Source: a virus (lineage: Duplodnaviria > Caudoviricetes). From it: 43,909 nt of DNA. A program made the position numbers and the translations under genes. The notes under the pieces are model-generated. The model was not told the DNA's origin. It saw nothing but the letters and a program-made list of their open reading frames with translations, and ran no database searches. Below, piece after piece: positions 9,895 through 41,615 of this stretch (within the stretch, counting starts at the first letter, position 1; each line of letters begins with the position of its first letter). The DNA lies in the IMG/VR virus record IMGVR_UViG_3300037461_000364, positions 1 to 43,909 of that record; one strand, 5' to 3'.

Positions 9895-10184
9895 GCCTTC
9901 ACTTCCAGCGTCGCCCGCTCGATGAAGACATGGCCAAGGCTCGTCGTCGCCGTGAATTCCAGCGTGTAATACACCCCGACCACCCCGCCGTCGACCTCCT
10001 GCCAGATCGTCTCCCCGTCAATGACCGCCGCCCCGTCCAGCAGCGCCGAAGGCGTCGCATCCGTCCCCTGCAACACGCTCGCCGTCACAGCCGCCGTCGA
10101 GATCGTCTCGCCAGCCGCCAGCAGGCGCACGAAATCAACCCCGAGACGTACCCGCTCGCCGGTTTTCTTGTCCGAGAATTCCAC
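9891..10184 (-). CDS. Putative fibre adaptor (small beta-rich virion protein)
   Basis: 97 aa, KKTGERVRLGVDF...GETI...GGVVGVYYTLEFTATTS pattern; lies at the end of the fibre module. Confidence 0.6.
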   Translation of the reverse strand: MEFSDKKTGERVRLGVDFVRLLAAGETISTAAVTASVLQGTDATPSALLDGAAVIDGETIWQEVDGGVVGVYYTLEFTATTSLGHVFIERATLEVKA

Positions 10185-10185
10185 G

Positions 10186-10422
10186 TCAGCACCTCACCAG
10201 ATAACGCCGCCGCGCAGCAGACAGCAAGCTGGCCCGCCGCGCCTCGAAAGCCAGCACGCGCCCCGGCGCCATCGCGTCGCGCACATGCTCCGGAACCAGC
10301 CGCCAGCGCCGTCCGGCCGCCTTGCGCGCCTCGCTCCACGCCAGCGCGCCAGACTCCTCCCAGGCGCCGCTTCTCCATGCGCCGTCCGCCCAGCTTCCTG
10401 TCTTCCACGCCAACAGGTTCAT
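10186..10422 (-). CDS. Hypothetical Trp-rich protein
   Basis: ATG at 10422 overlaps the upstream stop (ATGA); 78 aa with W-x4 repeats (AWKTGSWADGAWRSGAW). Confidence 0.55.
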   Translation of the reverse strand: MNLLAWKTGSWADGAWRSGAWEESGALAWSEARKAAGRRWRLVPEHVRDAMAPGRVLAFEARRASLLSAARRRYLVRC

Positions 10423-10922
10423 GCCGGCCCCCACTCGTTTCCTGGCACTCCGGCGCCGTCGACCGCAACAGCGTTGATCCGGCGAATGTCCGACCAGATC
10501 GGTGCCGCCTGCGCCGCGAGCAGGATGGCCGCCGCGATGTCGGAAGCACTCGGCCCCGTGCTGCCGCCGGTGGCGATGCCCTGTGCCTGTACCGGGACCG
10601 TGTAATTGACATTCACCTGATACGTTCCGAGCGTGGAGACGACAGGCACGCCGCCACCATCGACGAAGAGGTTGCCGGTGATGGTCAGGTTGTGGTTCGC
10701 CTCCATCGGCCGCACGCGCCACGAATTGAGCAGGAAGTAATACGGCGGAATCGACAGTCCGCTGCCAAGGTCGTCGCCTCCGGTCGCCGAGAATGCCGGC
10801 GGGTACTTGCTATTGTCAGACAGCAGCATCCAGTCGGCCCATGCGCGGAAGATGTCTTTCGCGGTGACAGAGGCACTATCGAGGATCAGCCGCCTGCTGG
10901 CGGCATCGACCGTGATAGTCAT
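10419..10922 (-). CDS. Virion structural protein (fibre module)
   Basis: 167 aa, translationally coupled to its neighbours; beta-rich composition. Confidence 0.7.
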   Translation of the reverse strand: MTITVDAASRRLILDSASVTAKDIFRAWADWMLLSDNSKYPPAFSATGGDDLGSGLSIPPYYFLLNSWRVRPMEANHNLTITGNLFVDGGGVPVVSTLGTYQVNVNYTVPVQAQGIATGGSTGPSASDIAAAILLAAQAAPIWSDIRRINAVAVDGAGVPGNEWGPA

Positions 10923-12274
10923 CAGGCATAGACCCGGTCAACCTCGGCAACCAACGAGAGCGCGATGGTCTTGCTGCGCGTCAGCGATCCGGTCGCAGCC
11001 ACGAACTTCCCATAGCCGGGGCGGATGCCGACCAACGTCACGGGTCTGTCAGTGCCGCCGGAAAACCCGCCCTGCGTATTGCCGTCGTAATCGTAATCAA
11101 AGGCGATCGAGGCCGCGCTGATCGTGCCCGTGATCGGGTCTCCACTGGCGTCGTTGACCGTGATCGCGCCGGATTCTCCGTAGTCGTTTCCGGCTCCGGG
11201 CGGGCTGGTGAAGAACAGCCGGTAGCTGGACCCCGCGCCGACCAGCGGGGCGTTGAAGCTGATCGTACCGGCGGCAGAGTAAGGGTTCGTCCGCTTGGTT
11301 CCGCCATCGTCGTAGAACTCGATTCGGTTGCTGTCGGCGGTCTGGATGTTGTCGATATAGACCGAATTCGCCGTCACCAGTGTATCGCCGACGAAGGTCA
11401 GCAGGTCGCTCTGAATCTTCCCGATCTTGCTGCCGGCATCGCCGCTGGCATTGATGTCTGTTCCCTGGCGCAGCAGGTACTGCACCTTGGTGTAAATCTG
11501 TTCGAGCGTGGCATTGTTGCCTTCGATGATGATCTTGAAATTGTAGTTGCTGCCGCCGATGCTGCGTGACTGGTTCGCCGTGTAGTAGCTGACGGTGATC
11601 CCGGAATACGGAGCGCCGGTCATCGCCCCGTCGGCGGCCTGAATCTTGAGGTCGTCCGAGTTGGCGATCAGAAAGTTCTGCTTGTTGGCGCCGGTCGCCG
11701 TCGCGCCGGTATCCGCCAGCACCGAAGATGCGTAGCGCTTGCCGTATTCGCGGCAGAACGCCTTGGCATAGGTGCGCTTGTCGAAATTGCCGTTGCTGGC
11801 GTCGCCATAGACCTTGATGCCGGCGTTGAACTGGTCCGAAAACGGGAAGTTTGTCGGGCTGTCCGTGCTGGCCAGATGATAGTACGGCTGCGCCCCGCTG
11901 TTGATCGTGCCCAGGCCGATGAAGCCGGCGAACTGCTGGGTGATTGAACTGGTGCCAGCGTATTCCGACCAGCCGCCGTCGCGCAGCATGTTGCGCGTGG
12001 TGTCGTCGTACCACGTCCAGGTACTGTAGGTACTGCCGTCGGTGCCGATCGAATACTGACCAGACAGCGCGTCGATGGCGTACATCGGGAACGGCGAGTC
12101 CTGATAGGTTGCCGTCGCCCACAGGTCGACCAGCTTGGAATAGACCGCCTGCAGCGTCACGCCATCCTTGGCCACCAGGTTTCCGGCTTCGACCAGGCGG
12201 ATTGTTCTGTTCGGCTCGTCGATAACGATCTCGGTCCCGACGTTGAGCGATGCTTTGCTGGTGATTTTTGCCAT
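10922..12274 (-). CDS. Virion structural protein (fibre module)
   Basis: 450 aa, G/S/T/N-rich; SD-like AGGAG upstream. Confidence 0.75.
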   Translation of the reverse strand: MAKITSKASLNVGTEIVIDEPNRTIRLVEAGNLVAKDGVTLQAVYSKLVDLWATATYQDSPFPMYAIDALSGQYSIGTDGSTYSTWTWYDDTTRNMLRDGGWSEYAGTSSITQQFAGFIGLGTINSGAQPYYHLASTDSPTNFPFSDQFNAGIKVYGDASNGNFDKRTYAKAFCREYGKRYASSVLADTGATATGANKQNFLIANSDDLKIQAADGAMTGAPYSGITVSYYTANQSRSIGGSNYNFKIIIEGNNATLEQIYTKVQYLLRQGTDINASGDAGSKIGKIQSDLLTFVGDTLVTANSVYIDNIQTADSNRIEFYDDGGTKRTNPYSAAGTISFNAPLVGAGSSYRLFFTSPPGAGNDYGESGAITVNDASGDPITGTISAASIAFDYDYDGNTQGGFSGGTDRPVTLVGIRPGYGKFVAATGSLTRSKTIALSLVAEVDRVYA

Positions 12275-12285
12275 GTGGAGGCTCC

Positions 12286-14940
12286 TTATGCGTAGTTGCG
12301 GTCGGGCGTCAGGCTGACCGGAATGCTGGAATCGGCGGCGCCGAGCGCCAGGCCGCGGATGTAGAACGGCACGTAGCCCGGCTTGATGAAGCCGACATCG
12401 ACGGTCGGCGTGCCGGAGTAGCCCCAGGCGTAGGAGGTGCTGCCGTGGGCATCGACTTGTTGCAGGATGGTCGAGGTGCCGGCAGTCAGGATCACGATGT
12501 CGCAGCCGGTAGGCAGGCCGGTGAAGGTGACGGTGGCGCCGGAAATGACGTTGACCATCGCGCCAGCCGTGCGGATGCTCGGCGTATCGCCGCCGCTGAT
12601 GTTGATATTGACGGTTCCGCTGGCGATATTGACGTAGATGGCCTCGTTGCCAGTGCTGCCGTCGCTGCCGGCGTAGCCGGTGAAGGTGTTGCCGACCAGC
12701 GCGATGTCTGCCGCCGTTCCGCCGACCTCGATGGCGTGGCCTGTGCCGCTGCTCGTAAACGCGCAGTTGGTGATGTCTTCCATCGCGCCGAGCGTGGCCG
12801 ACGTGACTTTCGTATCAGAGAGGTTGCAGCCATCCATCAGCGCGCCGTTCTGCGTGAAGGTCGGGCAGTTGATGAAGTTCATGCCATTGAACGAGGCGAC
12901 GCTCCGCAGCGTCACCGTGGCATTGACGACGGTCGTACCACTGAAGTCGTAGGTCGCGAGAGCGGAGGACGCCGCATCCACCTCGAAGCGGATCAGCGAC
13001 TCGGATGTGATCGTGCTATTCCGAATCTTGACCGAGTCGCCCGAGGACGCCTTGATGATGACACCGAGAATCCCCGTGTCGACGTGGATCATGCCCCCGT
13101 ACTTGGAGCCAGCGACCTTTACGAAGTCGAACGTGGCGAGGTTGCAATCGACGTTGCACGCTTTGCCGCCGCCGAACTGCACCGGGATGTAAAGCTGACC
13201 GGCGTTGTAGTACGGGAACAGCGTGCCGTTGATTGCCCGCTTGATGTCCGACCAGTTGGCGTTGTTGCCGCCCTGAATGATTGCCCGGTTGGCGAATGCC
13301 ATGTACGAGTGGTAGATGTTCGTCACTTCGTCGGCGTAGGAGCCTTGCGAGATGACCCACTTGCGGGTGTTGTTGAAGTCCGGTGCTATGCCGCTGACGC
13401 TGTGCGATGTGTCGGTGGATTGCGAGGGTTGAATGGCCCACGTCACGCGCTTGTCGCCCGCGCATTGCGGATAGGCGAAGCCGCCGACCACCCACGACTT
13501 GTAGTTGTTGGACGAGTCCAACAGCGGGAGCCGCACCCCGTAGCCAAGGTCTGCCGCCCCGGAATCGTAGTACTCGCGCGGCGAGGTGAATTGATACGTT
13601 CCGACAAGGTAGCGTTCAGCCACATTCAGGTCGAGTGTCGTGCCAAGGTCACGAATCGCGCCGGTATGGCAGCCGATGTAGGTATTCGCCGGGGAGACTG
13701 CGCTGGTGCTCCAAAAGGCATTGACCCCCGTATCAGCCACCGCGCCGTAGGCGTCATAGACCAGCCCGGCCTCTGCCACGCGAATGCGGCTCACGGTCGG
13801 GTTGGTGGTATAGACCGTCGTGATGCGCAGGCGAATCCAGTAGGCCGAAACCGAATTGACCGTGGTGGTCGCTTGGTTAGCCGGTGTGCGCCAGTTGATG
13901 ACTTGGTTATCACCGACAGTCGCCGTGAAATTGGTGGTGAGGTCGAGCTTCTTCGACACCGCTACCCAGGCACTACCGTTGTAATACTCGACGGCGAACA
14001 CGCCTGCCGCGCCGTTGGTGCAGCCGGCCCGATCCACGACCAGCGACGAGAACTGCGCCGCGTCGCCGATGTAGATGGCGTCATTGATCGCTTCGGTTGT
14101 CGGAAACGCTACGTCGGCATCGGTGTCGTTGGTCGCTGCCGTGGTCAGGTCAGTGAAAACACCACCATCATCCTGATACACATAGTCCGGGTCGCGCACA
14201 TCCCACCCGAGGAAGTTCGCCGTGGTGGTTTCGTTGGTGTAGGCCGCTGATCTCTCGCGATGGTAGCCGGTGTCGATCACGTCATGGATCGTCGCACCGG
14301 GGACAACAGGCACCCGGCCGCCCGTTGCGTTGCGGATAGCGAACTTGAGAAAGACGAGCGTGTTTGTCGTGGTCGTGCCGATGAAATCGATGCTGTCTGT
14401 CGCCCCATCTGTCGGCTCGACAGACCATCCGGAAAGGAAAGAAACCGTGCCGGCGTCCTGCGCGTCCTCGACGACGATGTTGCCGCCAGCGGGAACCGGA
14501 TTGACCGCGCCATCGACGCCGACCGCGATCAGGATCAGCGAGTTCGCGTAATTGACGTTGAGGCCGGTCATTGTGTAGGGCAGCGTGGCGTCGTTGTTGC
14601 TCCCAACGATGTCGATGCAGTCGGAATCAGCAGAGTCGTAGTAATAGTCGCGGATGATATAGACGCAGCCCGCCCACTCTTCACTCGCCCCGGTGAAGGT
14701 GCAGGGCGTGACCGGCAGCGCGGTGACGCGGTGGTAGGCGCAGGCCATGCGGATCGAGCCGGCGGTGATTTCTCCGCTCGCCGGGATTGTCCAGTTGGAC
14801 GTAATCGCCGTGCCGGTGTTGTCCCGAGAGCACATCGCCACCAGCAAGTCGCCCACCTGCACATCCCCCGGATTGGACATGAGGAAGGTGGTTGTGACCG
14901 CTGGCTCTTGCGACGAGGAAACGCCTGCGACATAGGCCAT
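12286..14940 (-). CDS. Large fibre / adhesin-like structural protein
   Basis: 884 aa, T/A/G/V-rich. N-terminal GDVQVGDLLVAM beta-sandwich-like start and beta-helix-like C-terminal part. Confidence 0.7.
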   Translation of the reverse strand: MAYVAGVSSSQEPAVTTTFLMSNPGDVQVGDLLVAMCSRDNTGTAITSNWTIPASGEITAGSIRMACAYHRVTALPVTPCTFTGASEEWAGCVYIIRDYYYDSADSDCIDIVGSNNDATLPYTMTGLNVNYANSLILIAVGVDGAVNPVPAGGNIVVEDAQDAGTVSFLSGWSVEPTDGATDSIDFIGTTTTNTLVFLKFAIRNATGGRVPVVPGATIHDVIDTGYHRERSAAYTNETTTANFLGWDVRDPDYVYQDDGGVFTDLTTAATNDTDADVAFPTTEAINDAIYIGDAAQFSSLVVDRAGCTNGAAGVFAVEYYNGSAWVAVSKKLDLTTNFTATVGDNQVINWRTPANQATTTVNSVSAYWIRLRITTVYTTNPTVSRIRVAEAGLVYDAYGAVADTGVNAFWSTSAVSPANTYIGCHTGAIRDLGTTLDLNVAERYLVGTYQFTSPREYYDSGAADLGYGVRLPLLDSSNNYKSWVVGGFAYPQCAGDKRVTWAIQPSQSTDTSHSVSGIAPDFNNTRKWVISQGSYADEVTNIYHSYMAFANRAIIQGGNNANWSDIKRAINGTLFPYYNAGQLYIPVQFGGGKACNVDCNLATFDFVKVAGSKYGGMIHVDTGILGVIIKASSGDSVKIRNSTITSESLIRFEVDAASSALATYDFSGTTVVNATVTLRSVASFNGMNFINCPTFTQNGALMDGCNLSDTKVTSATLGAMEDITNCAFTSSGTGHAIEVGGTAADIALVGNTFTGYAGSDGSTGNEAIYVNIASGTVNINISGGDTPSIRTAGAMVNVISGATVTFTGLPTGCDIVILTAGTSTILQQVDAHGSTSYAWGYSGTPTVDVGFIKPGYVPFYIRGLALGAADSSIPVSLTPDRNYA

Positions 14941-14977
14941 TATTCAGCCCCCGGAGCGGTGGAGAGGGTGTAGGCGG

Positions 14978-15166
14978 TCATTCAGTCCCTCGCCGCCGCC
15001 GCCGCACCACCTTCGGCGGCCCGTAGCATGCCGCCTCGACCCGCTCGACGATGAACCCGCCGACGATCCACAGCAGCAGGCACGCCACCACCCACCCCAG
15101 GCCCAGCAGCAGCACCCAGACGAAGCGGGTGATCGCCTCGGGGAAGAAAACGATGTCCGTGATCAT
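14978..15166 (-). CDS. Small membrane protein with Arg-rich C-terminus (lysis module)
   Basis: ATG at 15166 overlaps the upstream stop; 62 aa, one long hydrophobic stretch, ends KVVRRRRRGTE. Confidence 0.6.
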   Translation of the reverse strand: MITDIVFFPEAITRFVWVLLLGLGWVVACLLLWIVGGFIVERVEAACYGPPKVVRRRRRGTE

Positions 15167-15522: not shown

Positions 15523-16686
15523 TCAGCGCCGGTCGACCAGCATGTCGGTCTTCTTCTGCGACCCAAAGCTCGTCCCCAGCCAGAACCCGGTCGCCCCGGC
15601 AACGATCAGCGACAACACCGAAGACACCACCATCGCCCGGATTTCGTCGCTCCATCCCCCCATGAACAGCACCGCGCCGACCACCAGGTACGCCAGCGGC
15701 AACAGCATCATCGTCACCAGCATCGCCGGCGACAACAGCGGCCGCTCGCGCGCCTCGACATCCGCCTGCCGGGCGCCGGCAATTCCGCCGCCGCCGGCCT
15801 CGCCGACCAGCGTGTACCATTTCTCCTCGACCGCTGCCGCGAAGTTGCGCGCCATCTGCTGATCTTCCTGGATGCGCATGACCGCGCCCTCGGTCGTCTC
15901 GGCGCCGGTCACGGTCCGCGCCAGCGCCGCCACCGTCTCGGCGGTCTTGGCGTTTTTCTCCGACTGCTCGCCGTTGCCGAAAATCCGGATCAGCGACGGG
16001 GCCGCCTGCATGAGCCACGGGAGCGCGGCCATAATGAACGGGGGCATGCTGAAAAATCCTTTCTTGGGTTCGGTCTTCTGCTCGCCGGCCGGCGCCGCAG
16101 CCGAAGCCGGCGCGCTTGCCTGAATGCGCGGCGGTAGTGGTGGAGTGTCAATCGGAGTGTCAACAGCAGGGGCCGGATGCGGCACTGCCGGCGCCGCAGC
16201 CGGCACCGCCTGCCCGCCCGTCAACGGCGCCGAAGACGATCCCGGCTGCTTCGCCAGAAACGCCAGGCATTTGCTCATCGAATGCGTCGGCTGGCCATAA
16301 GGCGAACCCGGCAGGCTGGCCCACTCGCGGTTGCACGCCGTAATCGCGTTCTCCCACTGCCCGACGATGACGAAATCCAGTGCCTTGCGCCGGTCGATCA
16401 GGAACAGCGCCGCCAGATCCTGCGAGCGTTCGCTGAAGTCTTCCAGGTGCAACGCCTTCGCGCACTCGTCCCAGGTCGTCGTCAGGAACTGGTAAGCACC
16501 CGCCGCCGAAGAAGTGATCGGCCGCCCGCCAAGCATCCGCGTCACCTTGTGCCGGGGATGGTCGGCCAGAGATTCGAACTGCTCGCCACCGAAAAGCGTG
16601 TGATACCCCGCGCCCTCCGTATGCCGCAGCAGCGCCAGAAACGCCTGCACGTTATGGTTTTCCAGCAGTGGCGAATAATTTCTCAT
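15523..16686 (-). CDS. Endolysin (lambda R / GH104 lytic transglycosylase) fused through a Pro/Ala linker to a holin-like membrane domain
   Basis: AFLALLRHTEG, SSAAGAYQFLTTTW, SQDLAA and EWASLPGSPYGQP are lambda-R-like. The C-terminus has two TM helices and ends GFWLGTSFGSQKK. Confidence 0.85.
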   Translation of the reverse strand: MRNYSPLLENHNVQAFLALLRHTEGAGYHTLFGGEQFESLADHPRHKVTRMLGGRPITSSAAGAYQFLTTTWDECAKALHLEDFSERSQDLAALFLIDRRKALDFVIVGQWENAITACNREWASLPGSPYGQPTHSMSKCLAFLAKQPGSSSAPLTGGQAVPAAAPAVPHPAPAVDTPIDTPPLPPRIQASAPASAAAPAGEQKTEPKKGFFSMPPFIMAALPWLMQAAPSLIRIFGNGEQSEKNAKTAETVAALARTVTGAETTEGAVMRIQEDQQMARNFAAAVEEKWYTLVGEAGGGGIAGARQADVEARERPLLSPAMLVTMMLLPLAYLVVGAVLFMGGWSDEIRAMVVSSVLSLIVAGATGFWLGTSFGSQKKTDMLVDRR

Positions 16687-16703
16687 AACGCTCCTTTCAC
16701 CCG

Positions 16704-16752
16704 ACTCTATCCGGCATCCCGATGCATTTCACGGGGCGAATCATCACGCCGC
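16704..16752 (-). promoter_or_regulatory. Putative late promoter of the lysis/fibre operon
   Basis: Minus strand reads GCGG-N12-CCCC-GTGAAAT-GC-N14-TAGAGT; spacing is identical to the other three copies. Confidence 0.6.
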
Positions 16753-16798
16753 GTTTGCCTGCCATATCCAGAATGGACGGCGGGATTGCCGTCCACTT

Positions 16799-17128
16799 CT
16801 AGTTAGAGCCATACTCGTATTCGGCCAGTTCGTCAGCCACGAATCGGTCGAATGCCTCGTCGGCACGATTCCTGAATCCTTCGCGCGCAAAGCTGATCTG
16901 TTCGTGCCACTCGGTCGGAACGACGCCGTTCTCCACCATCACCCGGTAGCGCCAGGCGTCTTTAAACACAGGGCCGTCCTCGATGGTGAGCAGCGTTGCC
17001 CGAATGCAATCGCGGGCATAAGTGCGCACGCACGCGCTGATGGTGTCGCGCTCGTCTTGCGTTTCCGCCCCGCACGCCTTGAACAAATACTCGGGCACGT
17101 CATCAACCACAATTCGTACTTCCAGCAT
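16799..17128 (-). CDS. Hypothetical protein in cassette 1 (inverted relative to attC)
   Basis: 109 aa with SD GGAGAG upstream. The stop TAG (16799-16801) lies just outside the cassette. Confidence 0.7.
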   Translation of the reverse strand: MLEVRIVVDDVPEYLFKACGAETQDERDTISACVRTYARDCIRATLLTIEDGPVFKDAWRYRVMVENGVVPTEWHEQISFAREGFRNRADEAFDRFVADELAEYEYGSN

Positions 17129-17206
17129 GTCTTGCTCTCCGTTTCAAGCGCCGGGCTCTAACCCGGCAGTCCAGCGGACGCCGTTTCGGCGCCGCTGACT
17201 TCTGCG
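16803..17206 (+). mobile_element. Integron gene cassette 1
   Basis: Begins G|TTAGAGCC (16802-16810). Its inverse core GGCTCTAAC (17154-17162) is the exact reverse complement, as expected for a cassette that can circularise. Confidence 0.85.
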
Positions 17207-17212
17207 TTAGAA
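17156..17212 (+). mobile_element. attC: attC site 1 (57 bp)
   Basis: CTCTAAC-CCGGC-AGT[C]CAGCGG[A]CGCCG-TTT-CGGCG-CCGCTG-ACT-TCTGC-GTTAGAA. It has R''/R' boxes, 5-nt spacers, L boxes, and two unpaired bases that are extrahelical G and T on the bottom strand. Confidence 0.9.
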
Positions 17213-17490
17213 GGCGTTGGTTGTGTCTCGTGGTCACAATCAATGCAGCGCAACAGCGTGCGCGGCCCTGGCCATCCGTACTGCTTCACCTCTTTGTAGC
17301 GGTGCGCTCCACCGTTCATGCAGTCGGCTTGCGCAGTATCGTAGTGAAACGAAATCGTCGTCGTGTAAGCAAAGGTCTTGTCGCACTTTATGCAAGTTTG
17401 CTGGTGCGTTTGTCCTTCTTCGTAGCCGTATCCGTCGTCGTGGTTTATCTCCACGTCAGCCCCACAGTAGGGGCATTCAGCATCTTCCAT
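17158..17490 (-). CDS. Cys-rich (zinc-ribbon-like) hypothetical protein in cassette 2 (inverted relative to attC)
   Basis: CPYC, CIKC and CIDC pairs; strong SD AAGGAG. The last 15 codons and the stop run through attC1. Confidence 0.8.
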   Translation of the reverse strand: MEDAECPYCGADVEINHDDGYGYEEGQTHQQTCIKCDKTFAYTTTISFHYDTAQADCMNGGAHRYKEVKQYGWPGPRTLLRCIDCDHETQPTPSNAEVSGAETASAGLPG

Positions 17491-17571
17491 TTTTCACTCC
17501 TTTTCCGTGTTGACCGTAGCCTTCTAACTGTGCTTTCAACCGGGACGGCTTCGCCGCCCGTTAAAGCGGCG
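17207..17571 (+). mobile_element. Integron gene cassette 2
   Basis: Begins G|TTAGAAGGC (17206-17215). Its inverse core GCCTTCTAAC (17519-17528) is the exact 10-bp reverse complement. Confidence 0.85.
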
Positions 17572-17577
17572 TCAACC
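17522..17577 (+). mobile_element. attC: attC site 2 (R' box degenerate, fused to the portal stop codon)
   Basis: TTCTAAC-TGTGC-TTT[C]AA[C]CGGG[A]CGGC-TTC-GCCG-CCCG-TT-AAA-GCGGC-G|TCAACC. Confidence 0.8.
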
Positions 17578-18954
17578 ATTCCCGATACTCGTAGCGCTCT
17601 CGCCCTTCGGCGCATTTCCCGGCGTGATCTTGATCCCCGGCACCGTCCCGGCCGGCGCCGTGCTGCCGACCGGCCCAGGGTACGGATCGCCGCGCTGCGC
17701 CTGCGCGTCGAGGCGCTCGCGAACCATCTCGGCGTTGAATCCCATCTCCTCATAGATCATGTCGCGCGGCAGGCCGATCGCGCCCCACTTCAGCATGCGG
17801 TCGGTCGTCTGGCTCGGCGTCTCGGTGCGCCGCTCGGCGAAGCTGATCACGTACTCGTCCGGGTCAGGAACCATGCCCTTGAGCAGCAACTGCAGCCGGA
17901 AGCCCTCGGAATACGCGAAGGCCAGCGTGTCCTGGAACACATCGACCTCCTCGTAGTAGTCCCGCTTCAGATCCTCGAGAATGTCGCGCGCCAGTCCGTC
18001 GGTGTAGCCCATCAACCCCTTCGGCAACGGCGACCCGGCGAAGAAGGTATCCAGCAGGTGCACCACGTCGCCGATGTCCGACAGGTTCGCATCGCCCTGC
18101 ACCGCCGACACCCCGCCCTTGCGGTTCATGTAGAAGTCGGTCGTGATCTCGCCCTTGTCCTTCTCAACCTGCGCCCGGTAGGCGTCGAGGTCGGCCTGCG
18201 CCGCGCCCTCCAGCACGTGCGCCAGGCGCAGCGGCGCCCGGTGCCGGCGACGGATCACCAGATCCTCCTCGGTCATCCGCAGCTTGCGCCACACCTCGCG
18301 GCTGGCGTCGAGGAATGGCCGCCCCATCGACCCCACGTCATCGTGCGAATCCGGATCGAAGCGGCACAGCAGCAACTGCCACAGCGGAAAGCCGACCAGC
18401 TTGGCGCCCGTCATCAGGTCGATCTGCCAGTAAGCATCCTTCACGTCCTTGAACCGGCCGCCGTCGTCCACGTTCGGCAGGATCGTCTCCGACGGCATGC
18501 GCACCGCAGCCGTCACGTTGTTGTTCGCGTCCACCACCCACTGCAGCGGCAGGTTGCCCTCCATCGCCAGCCCGCGCGCGTCGCTTTTCAGCTTCTCGAC
18601 GCGATGCAGCTGCAGCCGCCGCGCGAACGCCTCCCACTCATCTACCAGCGAACGCCTGGGCGCCGCCTGCGTGAACACCAGCCCGCCCTTCACCGTGTCG
18701 CGCGCAATCCGGCTGTGGATGCGCCGCACCCGGCCGTCCAGCCGGTCCATCTCGCGGATGTCGAGAATCGCCTGCCTGACCTCGGGGTCTACCCACATCA
18801 GCCGGTACAGGTACTTCAACTGGTTTTCCGGCGTCGTCCGCCGGCCCACCTCGCTGTCGCGCACCGCCGGGCTCGCCTGCCCGCTCGGCAACGTCGCCGC
18901 CCCACCCGCCTTGCCCGTCAGCCGCGCCCAGATTTCATTGAGTCCCATCGCCAT
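17572..18954 (-). CDS. Portal protein
   Basis: About 460 aa downstream of the terminase; GRPFLDASR..WRKLRMTEEDLVIRR..RAP motif typical of portals. The start could instead be 18948. Confidence 0.8.
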   Translation of the reverse strand: MAMGLNEIWARLTGKAGGAATLPSGQASPAVRDSEVGRRTTPENQLKYLYRLMWVDPEVRQAILDIREMDRLDGRVRRIHSRIARDTVKGGLVFTQAAPRRSLVDEWEAFARRLQLHRVEKLKSDARGLAMEGNLPLQWVVDANNNVTAAVRMPSETILPNVDDGGRFKDVKDAYWQIDLMTGAKLVGFPLWQLLLCRFDPDSHDDVGSMGRPFLDASREVWRKLRMTEEDLVIRRRHRAPLRLAHVLEGAAQADLDAYRAQVEKDKGEITTDFYMNRKGGVSAVQGDANLSDIGDVVHLLDTFFAGSPLPKGLMGYTDGLARDILEDLKRDYYEEVDVFQDTLAFAYSEGFRLQLLLKGMVPDPDEYVISFAERRTETPSQTTDRMLKWGAIGLPRDMIYEEMGFNAEMVRERLDAQAQRGDPYPGPVGSTAPAGTVPGIKITPGNAPKGESATSIGNG

Positions 18955-19189
18955 TCCCTTCAATCAGGCGCACGCTCGCCACGTTCCGCCAGCCATCGAT
19001 CAAGCCTTCCGTGTACAGATCCTTCACCACCCCGACCGCCTCCGGCAGATGCCCCTCGATGAACGCCTTGGTGCGCGTGATCCGCTCCCGCTCCGCCTCG
19101 GTCAACGGCCCCGCCGCCGGCCGCGCCGTCGCCACCATCACGGACGCCGCCGCCACCTTGCCCTTGATGCCGGCGCAGGTCGCGCTCAT
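18935..19189 (-). CDS. Hypothetical protein
   Basis: 84 aa, coupled to its neighbours; LYTEGLIDGWRNV motif. Confidence 0.65.
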   Translation of the reverse strand: MSATCAGIKGKVAAASVMVATARPAAGPLTEAERERITRTKAFIEGHLPEAVGVVKDLYTEGLIDGWRNVASVRLIEGNGDGTQ

Positions 19190-25571: not shown

Positions 25572-28085
25572 TTACGAAGCGCGGGCGATTCTGCCGGCGC
25601 CGCTGTAGAGGATGACGCTGGTGTAGGCACCCTTGAGCTGGGTCGGCGTGTGCAGCACGACGAACTGGTCGCCGTAGGCTTCCTTCTTGCCAGTGAACCG
25701 GCCGTTGGAATCGCGCTGGTCCTGCAACTCGCCCATCTGCCACGGCTTCATCATGCGGTAACGGGTATTCCCGCGCTCGCCGATGACCACGCGGGTATCG
25801 CCCAACTGCAGCGAAGGCGCGAAGCTCTTGAAGTTCGGCACCCCGCGCACGTTGCCCAGGTCGCCGGCCGCCGTCACGTTGGCCGCGCCGCGATCGTAGA
25901 GCGCCGAGAACTGGTTGGCGCGCAGGATCTGCTCATGCACCGCACCCGACATCACCCCGAAGTTGGCTCGGTAGTAGCGCGAATCCTCGATCACCGAACG
26001 GCGCAGGCCGTAGCGATACAGGAAGTCGTCCCACTTGACGCCGACCGTGTCGCTGCCCAGGTCCGTGTCGAACTTGTGGGCGTTGGTCGAGTAGCTGTAG
26101 GTGATGGTCAGCGGCCAGGCATTGGTCGGCGTCACCGAGGCGCCCACTTCCGAGACGAAGCGGAACTCGCCCAGGTTGTAGTCCATGATGTAGTACGTGC
26201 CGGCCCCCTGCGTGCCGGTGCCGTCGTACTCGCTACGCACCACGCCGTTCAGCGTGACCACGATCGGATTCTCTGTCGATCCAACCTGATTTCCCTGCAG
26301 GTCATAGACCATGCGCGGCTTGACCACAGGGAAGTTGGCCGTCACAAAAATCTTCTTCGTGCCGTTCACATCCGAGGTCAGCGTGTCGCTGCCGGCTGCC
26401 ACCGCGAACTCGTCGCCAGCATTGACGATCTCGTTCATGATCAGCCGTTCGGTATCCTCGCCGATGATCCTGGCCGCGTTGCGCACGTTTTCCGCCACGC
26501 TGTCGAAGTCGATGCGCCCGCCGCCCGTCAGGTAACGCAGCTCATCCGAAACCTCGAATGCCAGCTTCTGCGGCATCGGGTAAGCGGTATCCAGCGCCTG
26601 CTTGATGCCGGCACGGGCGATCGCCTGGCCTTCATACTTGCGCGTGCTGTCGCGGCCGGCGCCTGCCGTGTCGCGGTAGCTGTACGGGATCTGCGCGGCA
26701 ACCGCGAATTCCAGCGTCCCGACATTGACGAACTGCAGCGACACCAGCGGATACAGCGCCTCGCGGATCACGGTACGCTCGAACACCGCCGGCACCGAAA
26801 CGTCCGACACCAGGCCATCGCCGCCGCCCAGCATCTTGTACTCGCGGCGCAGCACGGCCGCATGGTTCGCGTCGAACTCGGCCAGAACCTTCTCGACGAA
26901 GGCGGAATTCGGCGAATCCTTCGGCGCGGTCAGCCCCAGGCGACGGTCGACCGACTCCTGCAGCACCTTGACCGTGTTCGAATCGTCGACGGTGATGTGC
27001 GCATTACCCCGGAAGTTGAACCCGGAAGCCGCCAGCACCTTGTTCGCCTCGGCCTTCTCGGCCATCTTGACCTGCACTTCGGCCAACGAGCGGATCGCCG
27101 TATCCGACATAGCTGCCGAAACCACCGGCAGCAGCCCGTCGACCAGTTCCTTGCGCGTTTCCTCGGAAAGCGCCTTGCCGACATCGGAGATGGTCTCGCC
27201 CAGCAGCTTCTGGCGGCCGGCCAGATCGTCCGCCAGCTTCCGGCCGGCCTCGTCGCACTCGGCCAGCGCCTTGGCCACCGCCTTGTTCACATCGTCCGCG
27301 CTCAGGCCGGAAACCTGAACATTCACCGGCCCGCCGGCTTCAGCCAGCTTGATCGCCGACGCCTCGAACGAAGCCAGCATTTCGCCGCACTTCTTCTCGT
27401 CGTCGCCCATGCCGTCCATCGCCGCGCCCAGCGCCGTGACCAGCGAATCGGTGACGCCAGCCGACAGCTTCAACTCGCCGCACTTCTTGCGCAGCGCATC
27501 CATGTACTTGCTTTTCATCTCGGAAAGTTCCTTAAGAAGATCATCCAACAACTTCGGATGCAGCACCGTGGCGGCGCCAGCATCCCCTTCGCTCAACAGA
27601 ACCGGGTCCAATCGCTTGATACAGGGCCGCGTCACAAGCCCCGCTCCCAGGAGAACGCATCCGTGGGAATCACCCTTTTCGTTGTCGCGCCAATTCTCGT
27701 GATATTCGGCGGATAGGTACGCGAACCCGCGCACCCGCACCGCGTCGACGCCCATCGGCGTCCACTCCACCTTCGCCCGCAGGCGGTCGCCATCGACCTG
27801 CAGCGCCACCACCTTGCCCGCCGCCCCGTTCGCCGGCTGGTGCGCTACGTCGATGAACACATCCTGCCCATACACACGCTCGCTGAAATTGCGAACCATC
27901 TGGTCCAGCATGTCGCGCGTGATCGAGAAATTCCCGTAACGCGGATCGGTGAACTCCCCCGTCCGCGTCACCGTTACCCATGAAGAGGGCTGCCCTTCGC
28001 CCAGACGCACCGATTCCGACACGAAGCGCACCACGCGCCCGGCGTCGCCTTCGGCCAGCTTGATCACCCGTCCCGAACCGTGCAT
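25572..28085 (-). CDS. Mu I-like prohead protease + scaffold + major capsid fusion protein
   Basis: N-terminal FIDVAH...AAG...VEWTPMG...YLSAEY...LLGAGLVTRP (Mu-type protease), a helical middle, and a capsid-like C-terminal region. No other capsid candidate exists in the genome. Confidence 0.85.
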   Translation of the reverse strand: MHGSGRVIKLAEGDAGRVVRFVSESVRLGEGQPSSWVTVTRTGEFTDPRYGNFSITRDMLDQMVRNFSERVYGQDVFIDVAHQPANGAAGKVVALQVDGDRLRAKVEWTPMGVDAVRVRGFAYLSAEYHENWRDNEKGDSHGCVLLGAGLVTRPCIKRLDPVLLSEGDAGAATVLHPKLLDDLLKELSEMKSKYMDALRKKCGELKLSAGVTDSLVTALGAAMDGMGDDEKKCGEMLASFEASAIKLAEAGGPVNVQVSGLSADDVNKAVAKALAECDEAGRKLADDLAGRQKLLGETISDVGKALSEETRKELVDGLLPVVSAAMSDTAIRSLAEVQVKMAEKAEANKVLAASGFNFRGNAHITVDDSNTVKVLQESVDRRLGLTAPKDSPNSAFVEKVLAEFDANHAAVLRREYKMLGGGDGLVSDVSVPAVFERTVIREALYPLVSLQFVNVGTLEFAVAAQIPYSYRDTAGAGRDSTRKYEGQAIARAGIKQALDTAYPMPQKLAFEVSDELRYLTGGGRIDFDSVAENVRNAARIIGEDTERLIMNEIVNAGDEFAVAAGSDTLTSDVNGTKKIFVTANFPVVKPRMVYDLQGNQVGSTENPIVVTLNGVVRSEYDGTGTQGAGTYYIMDYNLGEFRFVSEVGASVTPTNAWPLTITYSYSTNAHKFDTDLGSDTVGVKWDDFLYRYGLRRSVIEDSRYYRANFGVMSGAVHEQILRANQFSALYDRGAANVTAAGDLGNVRGVPNFKSFAPSLQLGDTRVVIGERGNTRYRMMKPWQMGELQDQRDSNGRFTGKKEAYGDQFVVLHTPTQLKGAYTSVILYSGAGRIARAS

Positions 28086-28170
28086 GCCATCCCCTGAAAA
28101 AGAAGGTGTCGCAGCGAGCAGCGAGGGAGGAGGAGAGAGGGGGGCCTGGGCCACCCGCCGCGACAATCGC

Positions 28171-28219
28171 AGTTTCCGGCCGCCGATAGTGCAAAAAAAG
28201 GGGATGCCGCAGCATCCCT
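28171..28219 (-). promoter_or_regulatory. Putative late promoter / terminator element upstream of the capsid operon
   Basis: AGGG-N12-CCCC-TTTTTTT-GC-N14-GAAACT; also forms the hairpin GGGATGC-TGCG-GCATCCC followed by T7. Confidence 0.7.
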
Positions 28220-28242
28220 ATTGAGTTGTCAAGAGATCCTTG

Positions 28243-28491
28243 TCAGGTCGATCTCTTCAAAGGCCATGGCGTCATCGCCACCACCCCCAGATCATCCACG
28301 CCAAACCCTAGCGCCGCCCGGATACGCTCCGGATGCGTCGTCTCAATCCGCGCACCCTGCGCGATCAACCGCCGCGCCATCGCCCCGTCGATCACCTCGC
28401 CCGAATGCCGGAACAATACCACCCCCGCCCGGCTCGCCTGATTCGGATGCCGGTTCGTCCAGTTCAGCGCCCGCGCCGAACCGTCTGGCAT
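28243..28491 (-). CDS. Hypothetical protein (start uncertain)
   Basis: Fills the gap between the HTH gene and the capsid promoter; MPDGSARALNWTNRHP... Confidence 0.45.
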   Translation of the reverse strand: MPDGSARALNWTNRHPNQASRAGVVLFRHSGEVIDGAMARRLIAQGARIETTHPERIRAALGFGVDDLGVVAMTPWPLKRST

Positions 28492-28505
28492 GACCAGCCG
28501 GGTTT

Positions 28506-28748
28506 TCAAAACGGCGCAATCAGCAATTCTCCGCAGCACGGACACACCCCGAACGGATACTGCTTCACCGCCCGCGTCACCGTCGCCGGCGACAATCCGC
28601 ACTGCCGCGCCGCCCATGTCGGCGTCCGCCGGTCGCAATACACCAGGCGCAACGGCTCGCGCAGCCCAGATTTCAACCCGATGCGCTCCGCCCACTCAGC
28701 GAAGTCTGCGGCCGCTACCTGCTTTCTAACTTCTTTCTCCTCGTTCAT
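28506..28748 (-). CDS. Small HTH DNA-binding protein (TrfB/KorA-like) with C-terminal CPCC
   Basis: LRLVYCDRRTPTWAARQCGLSPATVTRAVK helix-turn-helix pattern. Confidence 0.65.
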   Translation of the reverse strand: MNEEKEVRKQVAAADFAEWAERIGLKSGLREPLRLVYCDRRTPTWAARQCGLSPATVTRAVKQYPFGVCPCCGELLIAPF

Positions 28749-28806
28749 CGCCAGCCCATACGGTTAGCCAATCCGGGCACCCTGCCCGACACATGAATCA
28801 TACTCC

Positions 28807-28859
28807 GCAAAAATATTTTTGCAAATAATATTTGCATTTTTTCGCAAAACATCTATTAT
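28807..28859. promoter_or_regulatory. AT-rich divergent control region with overlapping palindromic operators
   Basis: GCAAAAATATTTTTGC (28807-28822) and TGCAAATA-A-TATTTGCA (28820-28836); TTGCAT...TATTAT promoter-like pair on the plus strand. Confidence 0.65.
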
Positions 28860-28917
28860 TACCTCATGGCCCATCGGCCACCGCGCTCTCCGGCGACACC
28901 TGGAGATAGGAGTCATC

Positions 28918-29145
28918 ATGCAAAAGCAATCCCTGCCGCCGGCCAAAGCCGACCACTTGCCAGCCGCTTCCGGCGGCTCGGCGCATGTCCCGCTCAAATC
29001 GTATTCCGTCAAAATCACGTTGGCCAATGGCCAGCGCATCGCCTACCGGGCGCTCGCCGGCAGCAGCGTTGCCGCGCTTCAGGCAGCCCTCGACGCCCAT
29101 GGCATCACCCGCATCGTCATCCATTCAACAGGGAGAATGAAATGA
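28918..29145 (+). CDS. Small hypothetical protein
   Basis: ATG at 28918 with AGGAG SD; 75 aa. Confidence 0.6.
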   Translation: MQKQSLPPAKADHLPAASGGSAHVPLKSYSVKITLANGQRIAYRALAGSSVAALQAALDAHGITRIVIHSTGRMK

Positions 29146-29300
29146 GCAAGCGTCACCAGTGGAAATTCACCTGGAGCGGTCGCATCGGTGTTGTGATTCT
29201 TCCGCATGGGCTGCGCCAGCCGTGCGGCCAGTGGATCATCGAACTGGTCTCAGACCTCGAAAACGGCAGGCCGCGCCATGACGTGACGTGGCTGCAATGA
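29142..29300 (+). CDS. Small hypothetical protein
   Basis: ATGA overlap with the previous gene, GGGAG SD; 52 aa MSKRHQWKFTW... Confidence 0.55.
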   Translation: MSKRHQWKFTWSGRIGVVILPHGLRQPCGQWIIELVSDLENGRPRHDVTWLQ

Positions 29301-29305
29301 ATTCC

Positions 29306-29334
29306 CCCGAGGCGCGCACAGCGCGCGCCTCGGG
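29306..29334. terminator. 12-bp GC-rich hairpin between convergent genes
   Basis: CCCGAGGCGCGC-ACAGC-GCGCGCCTCGGG; no clear U-tract. Confidence 0.5.
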
Positions 29335-29361
29335 TGATACTTCTCGCCGGCCCCATTCCGA

Positions 29362-29808
29362 TCACGAGTCCAGCCGCCCCTTCGGCTTCCGCCACTTCCA
29401 GCCGGAATCACACAGCCCGAGCGTCCGCACCATCGCCGAGACGCCGCGCTGCAGCTCGCGCACCTTGGCGTCCATCGCCCGCACCTGATCGCCGAACGCG
29501 CCGGCGCCCTCGATCCGCGGGAACACGTTGCGCTCGAAGATCGCCCGCAGCCGGCGCTCGGTAGCTTCGACCTCGTGGCGCACGCCCAACGTCAGCATGC
29601 GGATCTCCTCGCGGTGCAGCGCCACCGTCTGCCGCGCCGTGTTCGCCTCGATCAGATCCTCGAACGCCTCCAGCCGGCCGACCACGCCGCGCAGCACCTC
29701 CAGGCAGACCCCGAAGTCCTCGACGAACGGCCCGAGCCTGGCCCCATCGAACGGCAGCCCGGCGCCGCCGGGCTCGAGAACGCTGGCCGGCAGCCTAATG
29801 TTGGGCAT
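29362..29808 (-). CDS. Hypothetical protein
   Basis: 148 aa, coiled-coil-like, in the antirepressor operon. Confidence 0.6.
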   Translation of the reverse strand: MPNIRLPASVLEPGGAGLPFDGARLGPFVEDFGVCLEVLRGVVGRLEAFEDLIEANTARQTVALHREEIRMLTLGVRHEVEATERRLRAIFERNVFPRIEGAGAFGDQVRAMDAKVRELQRGVSAMVRTLGLCDSGWKWRKPKGRLDS

Positions 29809-31293: not shown

Positions 31294-31649
31294 TTGGCCT
31301 TGCCTCCAGCCCCGAGCGCGTCGCGGATCGTCTTGCGCAGCACGCCGGCCGCCACCCGGTGAATCGACCCGTCCGGATAGATCAACCCGAGCGCCTTCGC
31401 CCTGCGCAGAGCCACCAGGCCCGGCCCCAGGGGAAGCCCGGAAAGCTCCACAGCCTCGCGCTCGTTGAACTCCACAGCCAGCCACAGCCGGTCAAGGTTC
31501 GCCAGGTCGTGCTGTACGCCACTTTCCTCCCGCCGCACCATAGGCCACACCGCCAGAATCCTCTGCAACGCTAAATCCTGCACCACCAGCGCCGCCACCT
31601 CGTTGTTTTCGTGCGCCCGCAAGGCATCACAAGCCGCTTTCAGATCCAT
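31290..31649 (-). CDS. Hypothetical protein coupled to the serine recombinase
   Basis: TAATG overlap with the recombinase stop; 119 aa MDLKAACDAL...GLIYPDGSIH. Confidence 0.7.
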   Translation of the reverse strand: MDLKAACDALRAHENNEVAALVVQDLALQRILAVWPMVRREESGVQHDLANLDRLWLAVEFNEREAVELSGLPLGPGLVALRRAKALGLIYPDGSIHRVAAGVLRKTIRDALGAGGKAK

Positions 31650-33256
31650 TATCCACCCCTGCTGATATTGACAGCCCGCCCGCGCCGAAGCCTTCCAGGC
31701 AAGGCAACAGACAGCATGTCGGTTCGCAATGTAGCCCTGTCCGGGAGCCACCGGACATCCCATTGTGAACACCCACTCCGGGTATTCACAATGCGCTCCG
31801 GCAGGTACTCCAGCATCACGCTGCCGTCGTCCAGCACCGCGCGCTGCAGCACGTGGCGCAGAAACTCCCGCACCTTCGCCGGATTCTCCGCCGTCACCAG
31901 GATGTCGCGGAATATCCGCGCCGCCATCGCCACATCCCCAGCGTCGACTTGAGTCTGCGGGCCGGGGTCCGCGTCGATTCGCTCGATCTCCACCCGCAGC
32001 CGATCCTGTTGCGCCCGCAGCTCGCGCAACCGGGGGGCGATGTCGGCCAGGTTGAGGCCGGCGCCAGCCTCGATCGTCTCGTACAGCTTGCGCAGGCGCC
32101 GCTCGACGCCGGCCAGCTCGTCGGCAAGCGTGTCGATTCGCGCCTGCTTGTCGCGCGCCCACTTCCCGCACTGCGCCTTGATGTCCATGACGATGCGCGC
32201 GACGTTCTCGGCCGTGAAGATTCGCGTCGCCACCGCGTCGAGAAGGAAGGCATCGAGCGCGGCAACCGGAACCCGACGACTGGCGCAGCCCATCCCCTTC
32301 AGGAATGACCGGCAGTTGTAGTAGTGATACCGCGTCCCGGCCCGCCCGGTCGCTGTTTCCGTGTACATCGGCTGCCCGCACTTGCCACAGACCAGAATCC
32401 CGGAAAACGCCGCGTCGCTGCGGGGGCGGCCGCCCACCCTGGACGGCGCCCGCGCGCTGATCTTCTCCTGCGCCATGTTGAAAACCTCCTCCGTCAGGAT
32501 CGCCTCGTGCGCGCCAGGCGTCACGATCTCCCGGCCTTTGTCCTTGAACACGATCTGTCCGATCAGCGCCCGCGAACGCAGCACCGACCCCACGGTCGCC
32601 TTGTTCCACCGCCGCCCGCGCATGCCGATTCCGGATTCATTGAGGCGCAGCGCAATCTCCTTCTGCCCGGCCCCGTCCAGACACCAACGGAACACCGTCT
32701 TGACCACCATCGTCTCGCTGGCCACGGGGGCGAGCTTCTTGCGCTTGCCCATCGGCACCGCCTGGTATCCGAACGGCACATGCCCACCATTCCAGAACCC
32801 ATCGGCGGCATTTTTCGCCATCGACCGCCGGGTATCCTTGGCAATCGACCGCGAATACTGCTCGTCCATGATCGCAACGATGCTTTCGATCATCCAAGCC
32901 TCGTCCGATTCACCGAAATCCTGCGAAACGAACACCAGACGGGCGCCGATTTTGTCCAGAAGCCGCTTGTTGAGCGCCGCATCGATGTGATTGCGCGCAA
33001 AACGGCTCGAAGACCAGCACACGAAGTAGTCAATCCGCCGATCTTCGCAGTAATCGAGCGCCGCCTGGAAGCCCGGCCGGTTGCTCGTTCTCCCGGAAAT
33101 CCCGTCATCCCGGAAGACCTCGATCACACGGGCGCCCAGGGCCGCCGCTTTCGCGCGGCACTGCTCGATCTGGCTTTCCACCGGCAACCCGTCCTCGGCC
33201 TGCCGCGCCGTGCTCACCCGAGCATAGATAACCGCCGTTTTTTCCCGCTCTCTCAT
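31649..33256 (-). CDS. Large serine recombinase (resolvase + recombinase + Zn ribbon + coiled coil)
   Basis: YARVST catalytic Ser, DDGISGRTSNRPGF, SRFARN, GGHVPFGY, SGILVCGKCG...YYNC. Confidence 0.95.
   Translation of the reverse strand: MREREKTAVIYARVSTARQAEDGLPVESQIEQCRAKAAALGARVIEVFRDDGISGRTSNRPGFQAALDYCEDRRIDYFVCWSSSRFARNHIDAALNKRLLDKIGARLVFVSQDFGESDEAWMIESIVAIMDEQYSRSIAKDTRRSMAKNAADGFWNGGHVPFGYQAVPMGKRKKLAPVASETMVVKTVFRWCLDGAGQKEIALRLNESGIGMRGRRWNKATVGSVLRSRALIGQIVFKDKGREIVTPGAHEAILTEEVFNMAQEKISARAPSRVGGRPRSDAAFSGILVCGKCGQPMYTETATGRAGTRYHYYNCRSFLKGMGCASRRVPVAALDAFLLDAVATRIFTAENVARIVMDIKAQCGKWARDKQARIDTLADELAGVERRLRKLYETIEAGAGLNLADIAPRLRELRAQQDRLRVEIERIDADPGPQTQVDAGDVAMAARIFRDILVTAENPAKVREFLRHVLQRAVLDDGSVMLEYLPERIVNTRSGCSQWDVRWLPDRATLRTDMLSVALPGRLRRGRAVNISRGG
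31761..31793. repeat. 14-bp inverted repeat inside the 3' end of the serine recombinase gene
   Basis: CATTGTGAACACCC-ACTCC-GGGTATTCACAATG (13/14 paired). Confidence 0.8.
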
Positions 33257-33759
33257 ATCTCGATTCTAGCCCGTGCTGCAATCCGGATGATGTTGGTCAC
33301 GTGCAACTCTTCACGAAGCTGGCGCCAAAGCGCCTCCTGAATCAGTTTCGGGGGCGTGCCCTGCGCAGCCAGGGCGCGGATGTACCGATTCCGCTGGAAA
33401 CGGCTGTACGCCGAGTAACAGCGCAGCTTGGGCAGCCGCGCCCCACCGTCATGCTGAACGCTCTCATCCTCCGACAGCATCCGCCACAAATCTAGCCAGG
33501 TATCGAACCCGACCCGCTCGGCAATGCGCAGCCACACAGCAGGAATCCCGATCTTCTCAAGCTCGCAGAGACGAGGATCGCGCCGTTTTTTTTCGGGGGC
33601 GGGGGCGGGTTTCAAGGTCGAAAAGTTCGCAAGGGTGCAATTGTTCAGGTACTCACCCCCCACCTGGGAGGCCGCTGCCTCGCCTTGCCGAGCCCCCACC
33701 CAAAGCCCGAACAGATCACCTTGTGCGATTTCGCTCTTGTCACTTCGCTTTTCACTCAC
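33253..33759 (-). CDS. Putative Mor/C-like transcription activator (start uncertain)
   Basis: RIAERVGFD...RLPKL...QRNRYIRAL...LHVTNIIRI resembles the Mor/C layout (dimerisation helix, RNxxI, C-terminal HTH). Confidence 0.55.
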   Translation of the reverse strand: MSEKRSDKSEIAQGDLFGLWVGARQGEAAASQVGGEYLNNCTLANFSTLKPAPAPEKKRRDPRLCELEKIGIPAVWLRIAERVGFDTWLDLWRMLSEDESVQHDGGARLPKLRCYSAYSRFQRNRYIRALAAQGTPPKLIQEALWRQLREELHVTNIIRIAARARIEI

Positions 33760-33978
33760 CTGGACACCCCCGGAACCCGCATGAACGAGTTGAACAACTT
33801 CGCAATCTGGCAAAAAGCGAAGAAACGACACTACCAACGTCTACTAGAAGAATGAAACGAGCGTTTAATTGCCCGCGCTTGTCGTGTTTTAGCGACATCA
33901 GCCCGAATCGCTCCGCGCCAGAACAGGCGTTGCGCCTGACGGTTTGCCTAAAAAAAAGGCGCCGAGGCGGGGAAACGC

Positions 33979-34995: not shown

Positions 34996-35031
34996 GAGAA
35001 CCTCGAAAAGGGGGGGTATAGGGAAAACACG

Positions 35032-41354: not shown

Positions 41355-41615
41355 TTCCTCTCTCTCCTTCAACATCGCGCGCGTCGATGGCCGCGCACAC
41401 GCCAACGTAGATGACGACAAACGCCGTCGCCTCAACCCAGTTCCTGACTCCCACCTTTCCGTTCCCCGCCGTTGTTGCAAACCATTCCCGCCGCTGCCAG
41501 CTCGTCACGGAACAACGCCGCGAACGCCACCGGCCACGGCACCCCGCCCAGCGACACCGCGCAGCCCTCTGGCACGTTGTCGCGCACCGTCAGCGAACGC
41601 GGGTCGACCGCCTGC

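Follow-up and report, generated by a model that had tools for sequence, protein, structure and literature searches.

The phage analysed here carries two integron-type gene cassettes, each with its own attC site, in an array behind a putative attI-like site. The phage has no integron integrase gene (intI), and the conserved genes of both cassettes are encoded antisense to attC. The anatomy of the array, the mobility of its units, the polarity bias of related viral cassettes and the frame in which their genes leave the cassette are direct observations. We consider it probable that the array is moved by a host IntI and read by the phage's own operon.

Genomic context and anatomy of the array

The window (the whole stretch of DNA analysed, 43,909 nt) is an entire 43.9-kb virus record, in which the tail, head, primase, repressor and integrase genes identified indicate a temperate tailed phage. 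Its recombinase genes (31649-35061 and 40683-41480) encode one large serine recombinase and two XerC/D-like tyrosine recombinases. A phage-encoded IntI was considered and rejected: with the integron-integrase model TIGR02249, which has a cut-off of 265 bits, the two tyrosine recombinases of the window scored 34 and 20, and no IntI exceeded the cut-off in five related virus records (two complete, three fragments). Among the loci collected, an IntI motif matched genome loci only.

The array occupies an 833 bp insert (16739..17571) that extends from the endolysin leader to the portal stop codon. Its upstream neighbour in the direction of transcription is a portal-like gene (17572..18963, minus strand), which has only weak portal matches (E about 3e-4 to 4e-4) and is 98% identical in the sister phage G001. 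The downstream neighbour is an endolysin-domain gene (15523..16686, minus strand; phrog_90 endolysin, E 2e-35), with a 387 aa product that has a long Pro/Ala linker and two hydrophobic stretches at its C-terminus. Elsewhere in the window, positions 10184-15035 and 28218-29387 have no match in G001, the former region containing two long ORFs, of 450 and 884 aa, that match neither Pfam nor PHROG. An 864-aa ORF at 25572-28166 has an N-terminal Mu-like prohead protease domain and is perhaps a protease-capsid fusion, which is a guess.

Cassette 1 (16803..17206, plus strand) runs from the core TTAGAGC to the G of its own site, attC1 (17156..17212, plus strand), and has complementary ends. attC1 is canonical, with R'', L'', L' and R' boxes, the conserved AAC and GTT, 5-nt spacers, and an extrahelical C (17171/2) and A (17178); it folds strongly (z = -4.7 against 200 shuffles), and its family recurs in viral contigs. 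Cassette 2 (17207..17571, plus strand) runs from the core TTAGAAG to the G of attC2 (17522..17577, plus strand), and its 10-nt complementary ends are GTTAGAAGGC and GCCTTCTAAC. attC2 has the boxes, the AAC and three unpaired left-arm bases, but its R' is G|TCAACC, with G|TC instead of G|TT, and its fold is weak (z = -1.5, 200 shuffles). The G|TC end, overlooked in the original prediction, overlaps the TGA stop codon of the portal-like gene (17572-17574).

The left arm of the plus strand holds an unpaired C and A in both attC1 and attC2, which makes the plus strand the top strand; the pattern of unpaired bases is that of the strands named in the available part of Table S3 of PMC9892861. The core pairs 16802/17162 and 17206/17528 are the sole two complementary 9-nt pairs spaced 120-1300 nt apart in the window. 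The complementarity of core and inverse core at the cassette ends measures 9 and 10 nt, and the inverse core matches 8-12 nt of the 3' end of the gene. The two attC lie 366 bp apart, giving at least two attC within a few kb, and no integron integrase is nearby; the array is thus a CALIN rather than a complete integron, which has intI. A consensus scan for Pc, which may miss a promoter, found no sigma-70-like site in 16600-17800.

The conserved genes are antisense to attC

In a classical forward cassette, the top strand carries the gene and then the attC of that cassette; here, the conserved genes are on the bottom strand. ORF1 (16799-17128, minus strand) encodes a phage protein of 109 aa and has a Shine-Dalgarno (SD) sequence, GGAG, 8 nt before its ATG. 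ORF2 (17158-17490, minus strand; 110 aa) has the SD sequence AAGGAG 6 nt before its ATG, and encodes a cysteine-rich domain of ~94 aa followed by a 16-aa tail. Both ORFs are co-directional with the terminase, portal and endolysin genes. The original prediction had described two ORFs with SD sequences antisense to a plus-strand attC and co-oriented with the terminase-portal operon, and the ORFs, SD sequences and unpaired bases were all located.

Neither gene carries its own stop codon: each passes the core as TCT AAC (Ser-Asn), as had been proposed, and the codons were located at both cores. The last ORF1 codon, AAC, straddles the crossover (16802|16803), and the stop just outside the cassette that had been noted earlier is the TAG at 16799-16801, the codon directly after the crossover, which is provided by the spacer of the attI-like site. 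ORF2 reads NAEVSGAETASAGLPG through the whole of antisense attC1 and ends, also as anticipated, at the TAG in the inverse core (17158-17160). The peptide predicted from this minus-strand reading across attC1 is AEVSGAETASAGLPG.

Protein searches recovered 434 homologues of ORF2 and 40 of ORF1. Substitutions in eight DNA homologues fall mostly at third codon positions of the minus frame; for ORF1 there were 53-58 substitutions at third against 4-12 at second positions in 4/4 homologues. The plus frames keep amino-acid identity at only 47-69%, yet are open in 7/8 homologues. These codon-position and identity patterns rule out the plus-strand ORFs as real genes, though their frames are mostly open, and it is the minus-strand ORFs, on which the original prediction depended, that are conserved.

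Neither ORF matched Pfam or NCBIfam, and PHROG matches were weak, with none for ORF1. The atlas matches of ORF1 were all under 0.9. The structural model of ORF2 gave a best Z of 3.5 to zinc ribbons (rmsd 2.7, 44 residues aligned), so that the protein, as modelled, weakly resembles a double zinc-ribbon-like phage protein; the clusters of its structural look-alikes are about 90% viral. Searches with ORF2 found nothing in the collections of phage and plasmid records; across 401 genomes they gave a single match, weak and broken. Four RNA-library runs yielded seven low-depth contigs, four on ORF1 and none on ORF2, which are strandless and may derive from DNA.

The head of the array resembles attI

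The site to the left of ORF1 was overlooked in the original prediction. It is a third site (16739..16802, plus strand) and is not an attC: it consists of a symmetric hairpin (16774-16795), a 6-nt spacer and the G of the core, with neither an inverse core nor an extrahelical left-arm base. The same shape of box, 6 nt and GTT is found beside intI in L450, L451, L454 and L449, and other phage arrays begin with it. The intI-adjacent regions of two of these four genomes, GACGTCCA CTTATC G|TT and GCCGTCTA ATTCCA G|TT, nearly match the window head, GCCGTCCA CTTCTA G|TT, whilst the other two retain the 6-nt spacing; the sites of L450 and L451 are similar to the window head in both shape and sequence. 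The sample for this attI comparison comprised the four genomes and L225.

The head-type hairpin pattern occurred at six sites in the loci collected, the window's included, and at none in shuffled sequences. A related pattern, GGTGTCTA-N6-GTTAG, had 60 distinct viral matches; a complementary core then follows in 11/60, and the other 49 may be chance matches or uncalled. Judged by its sequence, the head to the left of cassette 1 appears to be an attI-like site. A decayed attC is a less likely identity for the third hairpin because the inverse core AAC and the extra left-arm base are both missing. The 35 nt to the left of the head hairpin do not begin with a core. Separately, L465 (1501-1580) and L053 carry tandem 30-nt copies of an attI-like head, each opening with a core, which amount to mini-cassettes of attI.

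Reverse cassettes are a phage-typical class

We surveyed cassette orientation with one left-arm attC pattern, taking 124 of about 170 loci from viral contigs and 133 of about 3100 from genome contigs, with long flanks for the first 80 loci of each set only; one attC family pattern and the loci seeded by ORF1 and ORF2 thus form the base of the survey. Orientation was called from our own amino-acid composition score, a crude measure used in place of a gene caller, which left 42-65% of sites uncalled. With this score, the own cassettes of 82 complete viral attC were reverse in 44 cases and forward in one (34 uncalled, three too short), and those of 78 bacterial genome attC were reverse in none and forward in 22 (51 uncalled, five too short). 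A second caller, which used complementary cores as anchors, found 63 reverse, two forward and 47 uncalled among pattern-seeded viral loci (n=112), 21, none and 16 among loci seeded by ORF1 or ORF2 homologues (n=37), and none, 22 and 33 among genome loci (n=55). PHROG matches were found for 30/83 reverse genes, seven of them DNA methyltransferases, vs 3/24 forward genes. The proposal that reverse cassettes form a phage-typical class, for which a count of phage against bacterial arrays had been suggested as a check, is supported by this bias, the called bacterial cassettes being forward only. A universal reverse rule is contradicted by the cultured phage TJE1, which carries forward cassettes. 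As a separate feature, the right spacer of attC is 5 nt long in 47/82 viral sites and 15/78 genome sites (L025-L281).

Reverse cassettes do reach host integrons, where they face against the array direction, though rarely in our sample. The attC1-family left arm was detected in one of 401 genomes sampled (order of G004). That contig, G362:C130, is a chromosomal integron with an IntI of 466 bits; the attC1-family site belongs to its first cassette, which holds a reverse methyltransferase gene with its stop codon in the core, and forward cassettes then follow. In the corresponding locus (L534 4636-8900), the methyltransferase of the first cassette is of phage type. We take the later cassettes to be SRPBCC-like and toxin-antitoxin-like from their resemblance to known families. 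Host IntI may have placed the reverse cassette in G362:C130, where, judging from orientation, it would be silent. The earlier suggestion of reverse cassettes residing in host integrons therefore stands for one example, whilst such storage, at 1/401 genomes, looks rare.

Neighbouring sites end stop-less genes in the Asn frame

Reverse polarity puts the attC that belongs to a cassette at the 5' end of the gene, so that the 3' end is bordered by the next site in the array, whatever that is. ORF2 homologues stay linked to their 5' attC but vary in 3' site and tail. Four pairs have the same 5' site and different tails (L294/L320, L315/L369, L290/L295, L296/L364); the L294 tail is NVEFSG...VMRI, for example, and that of L320 is NV. 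Native homologues without attC stop directly after the domain (L316, L323, L398; L443). Together with the X6 contig described below, these pairs support the earlier claim that the C-terminal tail comes from the neighbouring site and varies with it.

Stop-less genes make up only part of the class. Of 83 non-redundant reverse genes, 34 pass the core, 22 end at a TAA within it and 27 end before reaching it, so that the reverse cassettes predicted to be stop-less are indeed so in 34 cases, but 49/83 carry their own stop and the property is not a rule of the class. Exactly 8 nt separate the stop from the crossover in 14 of the 27 genes stopping before the core, which constitutes a third stereotyped ending.

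All 34 read-through genes pass the core in the frame that reads AAC as Asn, and none in the other frames. Within 30 nt beyond attC, a stop closes the antisense Asn frame in 48/49 phage attC clusters, whereas each of the other two frames is closed in 33 (p 7e-5); the frames of bacterial attC are closed in 27, 27 and 25 of 35, with no preference for the Asn frame. The Asn frame is also closed in 10/10 sites whose current neighbour has its own stop, and is closed within 12 nt in 31/86 phage attC. With an Asn-frame stop in nearly all phage att sites, a stop-less cassette ends within about 30 codons wherever it is placed. The 33 closed tails are 1-30 aa long and share no motif, eight of them being only 1-2 aa. 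Residues 100-110 in the tail of the ORF2 model have pLDDT under 50 and lie outside the folded domain, although the low value partly reflects poor alignment depth there. Without a motif and outside the folded domain, the tails are likely to be tolerated by-products rather than a diversifier.

Three forms of ORF1 occur: native genes (L442, L443, L445), a cassette version that stops in the core (L444) and the stop-less version of the window; native and cassette versions of this one gene are about 80% identical, and their differing cores suggest separate captures. A broader reading, which we put forward tentatively and hold to be possible, is that phages maintain a cassette pool of their own, an integrase-less and mirror-imaged integron. 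Phage genes would repeatedly have been made into cassettes, the att sites would have co-evolved an Asn-frame stop that renders them plug-compatible, the native and cassette versions of ORF1 would be snapshots of cassette birth, and the pool would leak into host integrons. With the array mirror-imaged, the cassettes of such a pool would be read by phage promoters.

Read-through could instead be kept for the sake of translation, with ribosomes melting the antisense attC hairpin and coupling to the next gene, mirroring ORF-11 of attI1 and short attC ORFs. The start of ORF1 follows the ORF2 stop by 29 nt, the RNA of antisense attC1 has a strong fold around this stop (z -3.7), and coupling of this kind is described for forward arrays in the accessible text of PMC8876359. 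We regard this explanation as unlikely, since ORF1 has its own SD sequence and many tails end within two codons, which leaves the hairpin untranslated; the 31/86 phage attC that close the Asn frame within 12 nt also speak against it.

The original prediction went further and proposed that changes in cassette order generate a combinatorial variation of C-termini. Functional tails of this kind could act as stability tags or in partner binding. The tails do change with cassette order, the ORF2-family cassette forms shown retain the Asn frame, and one 16-aa tail occurs on unrelated proteins (L073, L091, L104, L138, L148). The shared tail, however, merely tracks a shared attC family, and the identical peptide is present in the shadow frame of a forward cassette of L534. 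The lengths of 1-30 aa without a common motif, the 8/33 tails of 1-2 aa, the low model confidence, the tailless state of 49/83 genes and that of the native homologues likewise speak against selection on the peptide, and we find a function of the tails improbable.

Cassettes move as discrete units

In the complete sister phage G001/L002, the portal stop is followed by a short leader and the endolysin gene, and the insert is missing; BLAST matches end at 16737 and resume at 17568. The phage sequence of G001 resumes directly after the G of attC2, as canonical crossover polarity predicts. In turn, where the window is empty, G001 has an array of its own, made up of an attI-like head and four reverse cassettes. 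That array (G001:C1 about 36244-38290; L447 16244-18290; L369) lies within a 3-kb insert, the corresponding position of the window being 39270, and includes a DNA methyltransferase gene and an ORF2-family gene; repeated copies of a 90-nt junction stretch are also present in the insert.

A contig of run X6, from another study, contains 16811-17210 with two differences in 400 nt, adjoined on the left by a different attC, so that ORF1 there would run on past Asn. Runs X12 and X13 contain parts of cassette 1 without flanking phage genes. The empty site of G001 and the placement of cassette 1 beside another attC identify the cassettes as units that move discretely. No cassette-skipping joint was found in the eight runs examined. 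The opposite recombination polarity, in which the gene would be tied to its 3' attC and the tail fixed, is ruled out by the co-inherited 5' site and by the empty-site junction that follows attC2. Stop codons as favoured insertion cores were also considered, and are unsupported (4/18 called cases).

In the mechanism that we consider probable, host IntI would insert and shuffle the cassettes, and the phage's own operon, given the orientation of the genes, would transcribe them. New cassettes would enter at the attI-like site, which lies farthest from the promoter in the inserted run. That att sites carry an Asn-frame stop may reflect a shared end-of-gene convention, held by selection against run-on into the next gene, with the tail itself probably a tolerated by-product. 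A relic array, moved by homologous or illegitimate recombination, with att sites that are no longer IntI substrates or are used by a phage tyrosine recombinase, is very unlikely: the lack of intI in a phage with two XerC/D-like recombinases, the G|TC core of attC2 and the core-less 35 nt beside the head hairpin would fit it, but moved copies have boundaries at or within 10 nt of cores, an attC1-family reverse cassette stands first behind a host IntI, G001 has the same two recombinase genes and different arrays, and phage attC of other families recombine with IntI1 according to the accessible text of PMC9892861.

Relation to known systems

Phage CALINs have already been published (Qi et al. 2023; PMC9892861), together with IntI1 recombination of phage attC; as described in the available text, they likewise have at least two attC and small genes, often DNA methyltransferases, and no intI. 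The CALIN of MW202573 contains part of the attC1 left arm, is reverse and has a methyltransferase ending in MKPNV. The forward cassettes of TJE1, the phage tested in that study, differ from those of the window in that their genes read into their own attC, so the tails are fixed. In TJE1 (L531 1-1515), AAC is in frame, and the genes end in ...SNNEFKATKAP and ...YNNEFDLTT. The accessible portion of PMC9892861 makes no remark on the polarity of gene against attC, missing stops, the Asn frame or attI-like heads. No report of reverse-polarity phage cassettes was found in the literature searched, with subscription journals mostly outside its coverage, and the portion of PMC11551772 available held nothing pertinent; the reverse polarity is apparently unremarked in print.

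The cassettes of classical chromosomal and mobile integrons have the same attC boxes, extrahelical bases, complementary cores and discrete movement, and the same order of attI and then array. They differ from those of the window, in which the gene runs antisense to the top strand, has its own attC at the 5' end and may take its stop from the neighbour. The called bacterial cassettes of our survey follow the classical layout in 22/22 cases. The 'reverse integron' of Treponema has its intI turned towards the array, whereas the window has no intI and the reversal concerns the cargo genes.

Insertions at attG and SALINs (10.1101/2022.09.11.507474, as far as the text is accessible) also place cassettes outside an integron by host IntI, a role that would apply in the phage as well. 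The target core in the window, G|TC, departs from the GWT consensus given there for genomic targets, and the insert brings an attI-like head. In ORF-11 of attI1, the accessible text of PMC8876359 describes a frame that spans the crossover and is ended by a stop in the partner site; it encodes a short sense-strand leader peptide, whereas the frame described here encodes the antisense C-terminus of a cargo protein. Pieces of attI can act as recombination sites within arrays, as in the delta-attI-type cassettes described in the available part of PMC12901181. The bottom-strand preference of recombination aligns genes with Pc (PMC5371416, accessible text).

According to the textbook, the polarity of attC keeps genes in line with Pc, a rule that the reverse class breaks. 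The class also offers, in antisense attC, an explanation for a set of odd, low-complexity C-termini of phage proteins, a point of importance for annotation. The origin of integron cassettes is an open question, and a phage gene family that occurs both natively and in cassettes with independent boundaries makes cassette birth accessible to phylogenetic and bench tests. Through reverse cassettes, phages are likely to gain methyltransferases and small accessory genes in a modular manner, using an enzyme of the host.
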